Assembly: GCA_964519225.1 (NCBI GenBank)
Contig: CAZFJK010000007.1
Location: 1-39,631, forward strand
DNA from: an uncultured Methanosarcinales archaeon
GTDB taxonomy: Archaea; Nanobdellota; Nanobdellia; Woesearchaeales; B54-G15
Direction of reading: 5' to 3'
Length of the DNA: 39,631 bases
Shown: positions 33,001-36,000 of the stretch, piece after piece
How positions within the stretch are numbered: position 1 is the stretch's first letter
Layout of the letters: each line of letters begins with the position of its first letter
Made by a program: the position numbers

Positions 33001-36000
33001 CCTCGTAAAGCTCGGAATAGATAGCATTTCTGTAAACATAGATGCTGTTCAGCAAATAAGAGAAGTCGTCGCAAGAACAGAAAAACAACTTCTTCTTGAA
33101 TTAGAAAGAAGGAAAGGCAGAAAAGAAGCCTTACTTTGATATGCAACGTCCGCAAGGCTCTCTCTCAGGACACCTTCCGTAGATAATCCCTTGCGGTTCT
33201 GTAAACTTTCCTAATTCAGGACATCTTCTCTTTATTTCATTAGCAATCTCTGTTGCAACATCCCTGATTTCCCACTGAGCTTTTGTGCATGTTCTTTTGC
33301 CTATAGAATGTATGGCATTCCAACCATTAACATGGATTAAATCCCATACCATCAATGCATGAGAAACGATTCCAATAGCCTCCTGAGAAGGCACTCCCTC
33401 TTTTACTAATTTAGAATATAATTCCCGAAGTTGTTCATTGAAAGTTTGATATGTTTCATTAAACTTTGATCTTTCTATCGATGGCGGCATCTTGAATTCT
33501 CCTCTTTCAATCGCATCGTAAATACTTTCTACACTTTGATCCCATGTTCTTTGTCTTATTGCCTGATGCCAGCATGCCAAACTCATCTTAGCTAAAAACG
33601 TAAAGTGCAGATGTTTCAGCATAGCCAAACCAGCTTCATCCCTTTCTTTTATTATCCTTTCAAGATTATCTAAAGGTATGGAATCATAACAACCGTCGAT
33701 GAAAGCAACCAAATTCTTTTTATCGCATCTCTCAATTAAATTTTTCATCGATTGGTTGCTCTGTGCAAATAGTTGAGCAGAAGGATACCATGCAAGCACC
33801 TCATAGTTCGTTTCTCTTTTCTTCATCAATCTTGGAGCTACTTCTTTTGCTCTTTCGATCATCTTTTCAACAACATACCTTATCACAGACGGCAATTCTG
33901 GTTTTCTGCTCATATGATGAAGGTGCATCAACTCTCTCGCATCGCCAAGCGTTTGAATATTTGTTCTTGTATATAATGGCAGAACGTATCTTGCATCCTC
34001 TGCCGGAATTCCGTTCTCGCGCATTTCATCATAAAACCTGAAAGCATCATTTAACAGTTCTTTCACTTCTTCGCTGTATTTAGAATTTCTTATTTCTTCT
34101 GGAAGGTAAAATCCTCTGTCTGCAGTCGCCCGTCTAAGGGATTGTTGAAGATGAGCTAAATACTGCGGCTGGCATAAGTGCAAAGTTGCTATTCTCGGTA
34201 TATCTTTTATTACAAAAATAAACGTGTTTTGATCGAGCACACTGCCGTGACCCCTTCCAGAAGTCTCTGCCAGTATCCTTTCAATCTTTTTTGTTCTTTT
34301 TTCTCGGCTTAATTCAGCATCATTAACAAATAATTCAAGAGAAGTTGGTTGTTCAAAGCAGCCCAAAGCGCCGTAAACGCTTAATTCCTCTGGTCCCGCA
34401 CCCCTTCCCTTAGTATAGGCAAATAATTCTATTTTAGGTAAACGATCATACATTGTTCTAAAATCCGTTTATTTTCTCTTTTTATTTTTTGTTGTTTTAT
34501 AGGATAATGTTCTTGCGAGTTTTTTCGTAAATTTAATAAACATTCTCTTCCAGGAAAAATCCAATGACATCGCTTCAAGAAAAAGAACAAATTCTTCAAA
34601 GCATAGGTTTTACAAAAAACGAAGCAAAGATCTATTTAGCTTTACTCGAGCTTGGTACAGCAACAGCAACAATAATAGCTAAGAAAACAAAAATCCACAG
34701 AGCAAACGTCTATGACGCACTCCAGAACCTAATCCAGAAAGGATTGGTTGGCTATGAAACAAAGAACAAAACTAAACAATTCCACGCTACTGATCCAGAA
34801 AATCTAAAGCTCCTTCTTCAGCTTCAGGAAAAGCGCCTTGAAAAAATTATTCCAGAATTAAAACTAGCAGCAGAACTGTCAAAGGCCAAGGCAGGAGAAT
34901 CTTTTGTTTATGAAGGCATAAAACCATTCATCAGCATTCTTCATAACTTCCTCAAGTACAAAGAGCCAATTCTTGTTTACGGCATCCCTAAAACAGCACC
35001 ACAAATGCTCAGAACATACATCCCACATTTCCACAAGAAAAGAATAGCATTGAAGATTCCCATGTATCACATCTATAATTATGATGCTATAGATCGTATA
35101 AAGTATCTTAACTCCCTTCCGTATACAGAAGCAGGCTATATCGAAGAAAAAATAAAATCTTCTGTATCAACAAATATTTGCGGCCCGGAGGTTGTGCTTG
35201 CTGTTTGGCGGCGCCCTCCTCTTATAGTTCAAATCATAAGTCCACAGGTAGCGGAGTCCTACAAAGAATATTTTCATTTCCTCTGGCAGCACATTAAAAA
35301 AGAATAACAAAAACCTTTTAATACCGTTCTTCAATTAATTCTTTTGAGGGGGCTAGGCTGGGTGGCTAGCCGTCACCTGTAACCGCAAATCGGCTTTACG
35401 GCGGAGCCGAAGCTGGGAAGGCGGCATGTTTCAGCAGTATGAGAGCCCTCTATCCCGACTATGAATTCCTGTCCCACAGGGCGGTTCCTGCTGTGAACCG
35501 GGTCAGGCCCGGAAGGGAGCAGCCCTAAGCAGCAGGCGATCGTGCTTGTGGGGTTACAGGAACAAGAAAGGATAGAGCAAGCCCTCTGCTGCTGGCATGT
35601 CCACTTCTCAGCACGCCCCCTCACTTTATAATAAATCATTTACATCCATAACATTCAACCTGCTTTCTATCTTGCTCTTATCAGGCACAAACAAAAATTT
35701 TTTATCGCCTTCTATTTTAGAAAGATTCTCTTCTGCCTTTCTCACATCCTTTTTACTAACTCTTCCCCATTTTATTTCAGCTAAAATTTTCGGTTTATTG
35801 AATCTCGTTAAACAGCAATCTATCTCTAAATCTCTTTTCTGCAAAATCGTTTCTTTCAAACCAAACTTCTTTGCCAGAAACATCCTAACGTTATCTTCAA
35901 CAATGGAAGGAAAAACCTCATCAACGACCCTTTTTAACTCTTCCTTGCTAATCGCTCTTTCTGATATGTTATATTTCTCATCAGCATAATAATACAACCA

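Follow-up and report, generated by a model that had tools for sequence, protein, structure and literature searches.

A signal recognition particle RNA without helix 6, and no detectable SRP19, in two lineages of small-genome archaea

The window, a 39,631-nucleotide contig of a draft archaeal genome (G000), encodes a signal recognition particle (SRP) RNA from which helix 6, the SRP19 site, is absent. Very probably the particle has two components, SRP54 and an RNA that combines an archaeal Alu domain with a bacterial-type S domain, as the outcome of a lineage-wide loss of both SRP19 and helix 6. The helix-6-less RNA, which a preliminary description had reported from this genome and one relative, is not private to G000 but lineage-wide, and it extends further than that description had it, to about 170 relatives in two lineages.

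An archaeal SRP RNA gene without helix 6

The interval 35346-35622 on the plus strand matches the Rfam model RF01857 (Archaea_SRP) over model positions 1-317 with 170.1 bits (cmscan, E = 1.8e-41), exceeding the gathering score of 96.5 bits over the full model, and is a genuine archaeal SRP RNA. Within Rfam clan CL00003 the best family alone is reported, here RF01857; four weaker overlapping clan matches were dropped without display of their scores, and RF01854 (Bacteria_large_SRP), its individual score likewise not displayed, is not the best clan model for this RNA. The cmscan alignment recovers the Alu features, namely helices 3 and 4, the UGUNR motif, and the terminal helix 1 that pairs the 5' with the 3' end. 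The features of the locus are as follows.

35311..35323 (+), archaeal promoter, with BRE-like A-rich sequence and then a TATA box (read from the sequence)
35316-35323 (+), TATA box TTTTAATA, its center ~26 nt upstream of the RNA start
35346..35622 (+), SRP RNA gene, archaeal type without helix 6, 277 nt (RF01857 match)
35346..35408 (+), Alu (small) domain, including helix 2 (cmscan structure line)
35346-35352 (+), 5' strand of helix 1, pairing with 35616-35622 (cmscan structure line, fold coordinates)
35360-35378 (+), helix 3 hairpin (cmscan structure line, fold coordinates)
35378-35383 (+), UGUAAC motif (read from the sequence)
35383-35404 (+), helix 4 hairpin (cmscan structure line, fold coordinates)
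35412..35487 (+), 5' strand of helix 5, partner 35537-35612 (consensus fold)
35485..35491 (+), site of the missing helix 6 (cmscan gap, minimum-free-energy fold)
35492..35531 (+), helix 8, the SRP54 M-domain site (cmscan and minimum-free-energy fold)
35495-35499 / 35526-35528 (+), asymmetric loop of helix 8, GAACC/UAA (cmscan and fold)
35503-35507 / 35518-35522 (+), symmetric loop of helix 8, UCAGG/AGCAG (cmscan and fold)
35511-35514 (+), GGAA tetraloop of helix 8 (cmscan and fold)
35537..35622 (+), 3' strands of helix 5 and helix 1 (consensus fold)
35623..35650 (+), T-rich stretch ACTTTATAATAAATCATTT directly 3' of the RNA end (read from the sequence)

Just 5' of the GGAA/AGCA hairpin, the 40 model positions 142-181 are replaced by a single nucleotide at about 35486. 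The score, model span, and gap given in the preliminary description are all reproduced, as is the equivalent gap in the relative G026, with 2 nt in place of the hairpin. SRP RNAs from one member each of the Methanocaldococcaceae and the Thermoproteota fold these same model positions into an 18-bp hairpin with a GgAG (GNAR) tetraloop. The absent hairpin is thus helix 6, as the preliminary description had named it. In the alignment, the helix-6 columns hold 3 nt in G000 versus 36 to 39 nt in 27 canonical RNAs. The minimum-free-energy fold pairs CCUGCUG (35485-35491) with CAGCAGG (35530-35536), indicating that helix 5 runs on directly into helix 8, and a de novo consensus fold of 57 orthologues (RNAalifold) contains no hairpin between the two helices. 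Helix 8 retains its GNRA (GGAA) tetraloop and both conserved internal loops, symmetric and asymmetric; the GNAR-capped helix 6 is absent, and with it the three-way junction that would join helices 5, 6, and 8. The RNA is a homologue within RF01857 but an atypical member, without one defining element.

What remains of the RNA is well conserved as a structure. The consensus fold of the 57 orthologues is a single rod of 88 pairs, 78 of which show compensatory changes. Paired cells amount to 92.1%, against 67.6% in shuffled alignments (none of 500 shuffles reaches the observed value) and 40 to 50% in slid controls. Helices 1 to 4 are paired in 92 to 99% across the 57 sequences, again with compensatory changes, and all nine pairs of the helix 8 stem covary. 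Among the same orthologues, the helix 8 motifs GGAA, AGCAG, and UAA each occur in 51 and GAACC in 34.

Could the short form be an artifact, or a relic? Contigs of two further studies span 35246-35522 without extra sequence at the junction; together with the same architecture in about 170 relatives, this rules out an assembly artifact. One alternative is that this copy is accessory or in decay and that the functional, helix-6-bearing RNA lies in unassembled DNA; in its favor, G000 is a draft of 53 contigs with 1,520 N. We find this hardly credible, as the locus is the sole RF01857 match in a genome that is 97% complete, and the single-contig relatives G026, G017, and G059 have only the short form. 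Moreover, the compensatory changes, the nearly invariant helix 8 motifs, and a conserved promoter point to purifying selection rather than decay.

The promoter was compared across the 57 orthologous loci, where positions -30 to -23 are TTTAAA-like, with T in 39 to 44 loci at -29 to -27 and A in 42 to 47 at -25 to -23; A is also found in 38 to 41 loci at -34/-33. A CTTTT-like run lies at the same place as the T-rich stretch in most of these loci, and that stretch is likely an archaeal oligo-T termination signal. From the conserved TATA/BRE elements and the T-run, the SRP RNA gene appears to be an independent transcription unit, and it is from this promoter and terminator that the ends, size, and expression of the RNA are predicted.

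SRP19 searches and the protein partners

An SRP19 gene was scored when its product matched Pfam PF01922 above the cut-off of 25 bits. G000 has no PF01922 match even at E ≤ 10, and no match exceeds the cut-off in any of the 151 genomes of the window's phylum or the 41 genomes of a second lineage. A second, independent archaeal SRP19 profile, built here, gave no significant match in the 151 phylum genomes; against the 8,381 six-frame open reading frames (ORFs) of G000 nothing was significant (best E, 0.23). The lack of a detectable SRP19 in this genome and the phylum sample, as initially described, thus holds up in the larger sample and with the second profile. As a positive control, the same Pfam search recovered SRP19 in 23 of 27 helix-6-bearing archaeal genomes (21/24 plus 2/3), a set whose completeness was not established and in which PF01922 misses four.

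Weak matches were followed individually. Recurrent PF01922 matches of 13 to 15 bits, covering model positions 30-92 in ORFs of about 207 amino acids from five genomes, were considered as a diverged SRP19; the four of these ORFs that were translated are ribosomal protein uS7. In G000, the best matches of the second profile are C44:1435-1695 (E = 0.23), which runs antisense within a 240-amino-acid ORF, and C45:1693-1824 (E = 0.47), a 44-amino-acid piece on a 2-kb contig that covers the N-terminal motif only; both are taken as chance. Across the 151 genomes, this profile gave three weak partial matches (per-genome E = 0.018 to 0.055), of which two contain stops; this is about the chance expectation.

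These results bear on the alternative that two proteins were kept and the hairpin alone was lost, with a substitute for SRP19, either strongly diverged or non-homologous, binding helix 8 or helix 5. One of the four archaeal control genomes, that of Sulfolobus acidocaldarius, is missed by PF01922, which leaves some room for a very diverged SRP19; the control misses show a profile that is not fully sensitive, and the lineages here are fast-evolving, with long branches in the SRP54 tree. Their small genomes are also largely unannotated (three of the eight ORFs around the SRP RNA locus, for example, have no Pfam match). Against such a substitute stand the null results of two independent profiles, in 192 genomes with PF01922 and in 151 with the second profile, and the nature of the best candidates, an antisense ORF, a short fragment, and uS7, as well as the loss of the helix-6 GNAR loop, the principal RNA contact of SRP19. 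We therefore regard a substitute as quite unlikely. The caveat of a diverged SRP19, raised in the preliminary description on account of the missed control, stands in weakened form.

The remaining protein partners are present, as had been reported. SRP54 is encoded at C6:3532-4884 (450 amino acids; PF00448, 216.8 bits; PF02978, 105.3 bits), with the GTPase and M domains in one protein and the RNA-binding motif SRIKRISRGSG intact. An equivalent motif lies in the C-terminal stretch of 17 of 18 SRP54 rows, helix-6-less and canonical alike, and in a Thermoproteota row it reads ARIARIARGAG. A second, FtsY-like SRP-GTPase is a 349-amino-acid ORF with a PF00448 match of 240.1 bits at C6:30797-31369. 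Since the sole PF02978 match reported in G000 (C6:4501-4803) falls inside the SRP54 gene, the FtsY-like ORF has no M domain.

With helix 6 gone and SRP19 undetected, the working particle would be SRP54 plus RNA. In the reading that we favor, the two-component particle, deletion of helix 6 would have left only helix 8, stacked on helix 5, as the S domain. The SRP54 M domain would then bind the symmetric and asymmetric loops of helix 8 unaided, without the SRP19/helix-6 clamp, like Ffh on the 4.5S and 6S RNAs of bacteria. The GGAA tetraloop would be left free, with FtsY as the receptor, and may dock the SRP54-FtsY GTPase pair in a bacterial-style role. Lacking both the hairpin and a detectable SRP19, such a particle resembles the bacterial one at its working end. 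Unaided binding has archaeal precedent: the available text of two sources has archaeal SRP RNA binding SRP54 without SRP19 (PMC2905702, PMC6098224), and both cite a Haloferax volcanii SRP19 deletion that leaves translocation and membrane insertion unaffected (Yurist et al. 2007). In Thermoproteus tenax, however, SRP54 binding to the S domain is described as weak without SRP19, in the part of the source available (PMC4731332), so unaided binding is not universal among archaea.

Distribution and direction of the change

In the window's order, SRP RNA was found in 39 of 41 genomes, always in the short form. The members of its phylum have small genomes of 0.5 to 2.1 Mb and are DPANN-like, to judge by these sizes and by the title of L172, the metagenome-assembled genome (MAG) discussed below; one class and one order with more than 70 families would fit Nanoarchaeota/Woesearchaeales as a tentative placement. 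In this phylum, 142 of 151 genomes yielded an SRP RNA, and 137 of these RNAs are 263 to 278 nt long. The remaining five comprise three with a lineage-specific insert, one split by a contig end, and one aberrant RNA of 140 nt; among the 151 genomes searched, five gave no SRP RNA at E ≤ 1. The second lineage, reached through a MAG titled Aenigmatarchaeota, has an SRP RNA in all 41 genomes, 32 of them 266 to 289 nt long, and two members (G200 and G204) are helix-6-less by cmscan. Not all members conform: the helix-6 site holds 35 to 81 nt in three genomes of a single genus of the window's phylum and in three to four of the 41 genomes of the second lineage; no SRP19 was detected in those genomes.

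A pattern scan aimed at archaeal SRP RNAs with helix 6 brought in bacterial chance matches as well. One MAG, L172, was read by the scan as having a canonical SRP RNA, and it led to the second lineage; its spacing is due to a 46-nt insert in helix 4, not to helix 6.

SRP54 phylogeny separates the two kinds of genome. In a single-gene, unrooted tree (midpoint for drawing only), 14 helix-6-less rows form one clade apart from 11 helix-6-bearing rows (97/97 support), and the SRP54s of four SRP19-bearing archaeal genomes group with euryarchaeal SRP54s. This clade is compatible with a single deep change in either direction. One direction would make the particle without helix 6 and SRP19 the original archaeal state, shared with Bacteria, with both elements gained subsequently by the ancestor that eukaryotes share with the other archaea; the S-domain architecture, which equals that of bacterial SRP RNAs, fits this as well. 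If true, the feature would be a discrete molecular character of a rare kind, relevant to the position of the archaeal root. Nevertheless, we judge it very unlikely: the RNA shows every other archaeal-specific feature (helix 1, best score on the archaeal model), the tree that would carry the claim is one unrooted gene, and the small-genome archaea sampled comprise two lineages, with Micrarchaeota, Iainarchaeota, Altiarchaeota, Undinarchaeota, and Nanohaloarchaeota outside the sample. Loss is the simpler reading because these genomes are reduced overall, and the dispensability of SRP19 in Haloferax implies that loss is easy.

The simplest reading of the distribution is that SRP19 and helix 6 were lost together long ago. 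That a single ancient co-loss marks a clade of the window's phylum and the Aenigmatarchaeota-titled lineage is likelier than the ancestral reading and, in our estimate, about as probable as not; if so, it would provide a simple presence/absence marker for a disputed small-genome archaeal grouping. The helix-6/SRP19 pair also supplies a clean character with which to test how small-genome archaea are related.

Comparison with known signal recognition particles

The literature searched contains no report of an archaeal SRP without helix 6 and SRP19. The main texts of two DPANN comparative studies (PMC7414124, PMC8204110) have no SRP term, and their supplements may show the absence implicitly; for two nanohaloarchaea, the available part of a description gives FtsY, Ffh, and SRP RNA and does not give SRP19 (PMC10266531). 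In the available text of Zwieb and Bhuiyan 2010 (PMC2905702), SRP19 genes occur in all archaeal subgroups, coexisting with helix 6, and the adenosine clamp between helices 6 and 8 is likely in all archaeal and eukaryotic SRP RNAs. This generalization fails in the lineages described here. In reviews, SRP19 and helix 6 count as universal among Archaea and Eukarya and set their SRP apart from the bacterial one; the two groups of small-genome archaea in question, both large and widespread in the environment, manage without either. SRP19 is accordingly not a universal archaeal marker, a warning to annotation and completeness pipelines. A minimal archaeal SRP of one protein and one RNA also offers a system for structural and mechanistic work, on how helix 8 is readied for SRP54 without the clamp and what the freed GGAA does in receptor docking.

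Relative to the canonical archaeal SRP of Methanocaldococcus jannaschii, Sulfolobus solfataricus, and Pyrococcus furiosus, the particle shares the full-length RF01857 match, helix 1, hairpins 3 and 4, UGUAAC, a long helix 5, and helix 8 with its GGAA, AGCAG, and GAACC/UAA loops, together with the SRP54 M-domain motif and FtsY as the single receptor. It departs from that system, which consists of RNA, SRP19, and SRP54, in lacking helix 6 and any detectable SRP19 gene.

The large SRP RNA of the Bacillus type (about 270 nt, RF01854) works with Ffh and has an Alu domain, helix 5, and helix 8, without helix 6 or SRP19. The window RNA resembles it in this architecture, in length, and in having one SRP54-family protein on helix 8. 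Unlike it, the window RNA finds its best match in the archaeal model, carries the terminal helix 1 of archaea, and has archaeal SRP54 and FtsY partners, which makes the likeness convergent, by loss, and not a sign of membership. Escherichia coli 4.5S RNA with Ffh is likewise similar in its single-hairpin S domain, free GGAA, and loop motifs, with Ffh binding without an accessory protein, but 4.5S RNA has no Alu domain. The free tetraloop of the bacterial RNAs speeds FtsY docking, and that of the window RNA may do the same.

An archaeal parallel in function is the Haloferax volcanii SRP19 deletion strain, in which an archaeal SRP works without SRP19. As described in the source text available, that strain is a laboratory deletion in which helix 6 is kept, whereas here both partners are missing naturally and from whole lineages, turning the dispensability of SRP19 from a laboratory result into a natural, lineage-wide fact.

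The SRP RNA gene and its fold

A permissive Rfam scan covering 34800-36200 of the window returned a sole match, to Archaea_SRP (RF01857), spanning model positions 1-317 (170.1 bits versus a gathering score of 96.5; E 1.8e-41). The alignment reproduces exactly the coordinates given in the preliminary description, as well as the replacement of 40 consensus positions by 1 nt, which lies directly 5' of the GGAA/AGCA hairpin. No second RF01857 copy was found in the organism's genome, G000 (868,879 bases in 53 contigs, 97% complete). The RNA sits in a 318-nt gap between a regulator gene and an ATPase gene.

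Features around the SRP RNA gene
30800-33139, plus strand, PEP synthase/pyruvate phosphate dikinase-type enzyme
34564-35307, plus strand, TrmB-family regulator gene, neighbour of the SRP RNA
35316-35323, plus strand, TATA box TTTTAATA, ~26 nt upstream of the RNA 5' end, with an A-rich stretch before it
35346-35622, plus strand, SRP RNA
35626-36843, minus strand, AAA-ATPase gene, neighbour of the SRP RNA
37971-38609, plus strand, HD-domain protein

Across 57 orthologous loci, the TATA positions are TTTAAA-like with A at -34/-33, and a T-run immediately follows the RNA 3' end in most. Bridging contigs from two other studies, across 35246-35522, carry nine substitutions and have the junction without insertion. 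The SRP RNA locus is a real gene under selection. An 88-aa antisense ORF within it matches no family and is judged spurious. Of the neighbouring ORFs, 36944-37906 and 35597-35989 gave no Pfam match. A further ORF at 33131-34453 (minus strand) matches the ThyX (Thy1) domain in two places; at 440 aa it is about double the length usual for this family, which points to a flavin-dependent thymidylate synthase with tandem domains.

The fold of the 57 orthologous RNAs (269-277 nt; alignment A1) was predicted independently of Rfam. The consensus is one rod, in which the Alu hairpins are followed by a helix 5 continuous into helix 8, with compensatory change in 78 of 88 pairs. Pairing is found in 92.1% of cells versus 67.6% in shuffles, none of 500 shuffles matching the observed value, and in 40-50% when partners are slid by one to three columns. 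In G000, CCUGCUG (35487-35493) is paired with CAGCAGG (35530-35536), and thus no three-way junction remains. The helix 8 elements for the SRP54 M domain are kept: GGAA, AGCAG, and UAA are each present in 51 of the 57 RNAs, and GAACC is present as such or, in the rest, as a close variant. The six loops other than GGAA (A1 columns 168-171) read UGAC in three RNAs, GGGA in two, and UGAU in one.

Absence of helix 6 and the search for SRP19

Model positions 142-181 are complete in two canonical SRP RNAs, from MAGs of Methanocaldococcaceae (L147) and Thermoproteota (L134), where they form 18 nested pairs with a GgAG tetraloop at the tip. As passages of a review (PMC2905702) assign a GNAR tetraloop to helix 6, state that SRP19 coexists with this helix, and describe a clamp between adenosines in the loops of helix 6 and helix 8, the name that the preliminary description gave to the missing hairpin is borne out. 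In a MAFFT alignment of G000 with 27 canonically spaced RNAs, the helix 6 columns hold 36-39 nt in the canonical RNAs versus 3 nt in G000; the canonical loops are GGAG, GAAG, and GUAG, with AAAG in Thermoplasmatales-like records. In L134, ~100 nt separate the SRP RNA gene from a 111-nt tRNA match (621-731, plus strand), which probably bears an intron, since it exceeds the length of a plain tRNA.

The claim that no SRP19 gene is detectable holds for G000 and extends well beyond it. With the SRP19 Pfam profile (PF01922), G000 yields no match, even at E<=10, and none of 151 phylum genomes or of 41 from a second lineage has one over the cut-off. Weak matches (E 0.03-0.4) occur in 19 of the 151; what recurs among them is ribosomal protein uS7, not a diverged SRP19. 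This protein is a trap, giving a reproducible 13-15 bits to profile positions 30-92 (L058, L059, L064, L066). Among 27 control genomes, in all of which helix 6 was confirmed, SRP19 was matched in 21 of 24 archaeal genomes (20 over the cut-off) and in two of three additional ones. The profile is imperfect, as had been cautioned: it misses Sulfolobus acidocaldarius, one of four archaeal controls.

A second profile, built from the 21 SRP19 sequences of the control genomes, was run with HMMER filters off against all 8381 six-frame ORFs of G000 that reach 40 aa or more; its best matches (E 0.23 and 0.47) are both implausible ORFs. In the 151 genomes it gave three partial matches at chance level (E 0.018-0.055). 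G000's only imaginable SRP19 relic is an open reading frame of 44 aa in a contig of 2 kb (C45:1693-1824, plus strand), whose KRKTLIFPTYLHPKRSRR resembles an N-terminal SRP19 motif (E 0.47), most likely by chance.

Distribution across two lineages

Within the same order, sampled as 41 genomes, one per family except the congeners G000 and G001, SRP RNA is found in 39, at 264-277 nt bar two truncated at contig ends. The phylum sample comprised 151 genomes of a single class, each at least 90% complete, and 142 have an RF01857 match, 137 of these being 263-278 nt long. G051, split by a contig end, and G144, aberrant with a 140-nt match, are exceptions. The cmscan alignments bear out the gap noted earlier in G026 (2 nt) and extend it to G053 (0 nt) and G066 (1 nt). 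Three genomes of one genus, G075 (L068), G050 (L069), and G113 (L070), have RNAs of 309-320 nt with a variable-sequence 35-46-nt hairpin exactly at the helix 6 site, which shows CUGG/CCAG closure, non-GNAR loops, and compensatory changes in the inner stem. Their congener G098 (L071) is without it, and SRP19 is found in none of 10 genomes of the family; the hairpin looks like a secondary insertion or expansion at the old junction.

Five genomes from other orders of the class (G089, G077, G124, G168, G132; 96-98% complete) gave no RF01857 match even at E<=1. The SRP54 M domain is present in four of these; in G089, a single 0.5-Mb contig, neither SRP RNA nor the M domain was detected. Either the SRP components are very diverged in these genomes or reduction has been carried further.

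The second lineage was met by chance, when a pattern scan for canonical spacing returned L172 (G200). This RNA was rejected as canonical: its spacing is due to helix 4, which carries a 46-nt insert, and helix 6 is absent. All 41 genomes of the lineage have the RNA, 32 at 266-289 nt and nine at 306-358 nt. Five of the long RNAs are without helix 6 and have inserts elsewhere: in the Alu domain in G200 (45-46 nt in the helix 4 loop; L231/L172) and G218 (108 nt; L259), and, in G220 (L252), G229 (L255), and G212 (L257), as 33-41 nt where the helix 8 GGAA tetraloop would be. The extended helix 8 tip of the latter three would eliminate a tetraloop almost invariant elsewhere. G221 (L256), G234 (L258), and G242 carry 39-81 nt at or near the helix 6 site, and the ninth, G206, was placed in neither group. 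Enlarged by inserts, the RNAs of G200, G234, G218, and G221 reach 318-358 nt.

An SRP54 tree of 25 rows was reconstructed, excluding partial products from G193 and G195; in G200, G183, and G203 the SRP54 M domain was not matched. The second lineage's four rows form their own clade (96/90), beside which stands a clade (93/91) of nine of the 10 rows that represent the window's phylum. As a group, the 14 helix-6-less rows split from the 11 helix-6-bearing rows (97/97). Because the lineage's 40 other genomes do not overlap with the earlier 175, its record title (Candidatus Aenigmatarchaeota) is also different, and its SRP54 proteins form a clade of their own, these data suggest a phylum distinct from that of the window.

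Protein partners and comparison with known SRPs

The SRP has neither helix 6 nor detectable SRP19; its components are one RNA with an intact helix 8 SRP54 site, one SRP protein, and one receptor, both proteins being present as previously described.

C6:3532-4884, SRP54, 450 aa, with both Pfam domains and the SRIKRISRGSG motif
C6:30797-31369, FtsY-like GTPase, 349 aa

The SRP54 M domain would bind helix 8 without help, as passages of PMC2905702 and PMC6098224 report unaided SRP54 binding for several archaeal SRP RNAs and a viable Haloferax SRP19 deletion, which implies the same. A passage of PMC4731332 calls for caution: without SRP19, binding of the S domain by SRP54 of Thermoproteus tenax was only weak. 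With the Alu domain kept, elongation-arrest-type ribosome contacts may persist. In bacteria, the tetraloop is the first docking point of the SRP54-FtsY GTPase pair. Here the GGAA tetraloop would have lost its clamp to helix 6 and thus may be free for that role.

Full-text literature searches returned no report of archaeal SRP RNAs that lack helix 6 or of a lineage without SRP19; supplementary presence/absence tables of DPANN genomics papers may show the absence implicitly. The 2010 review (PMC2905702) generalises the opposite. In passages of a 2023 paper on nanohaloarchaea (PMC10266531), FtsY, Ffh, and SRP RNA are listed, and SRP19, uncommented, is not. An SRP lacking both helix 6 and any detectable SRP19, as known from sequence, is solid as an observation and of interest to specialists in SRP and archaeal evolution. 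Its RNA equals in architecture the large bacterial SRP RNA of the Bacillus type, a likeness most likely arrived at through loss, starting from an archaeal ancestor.
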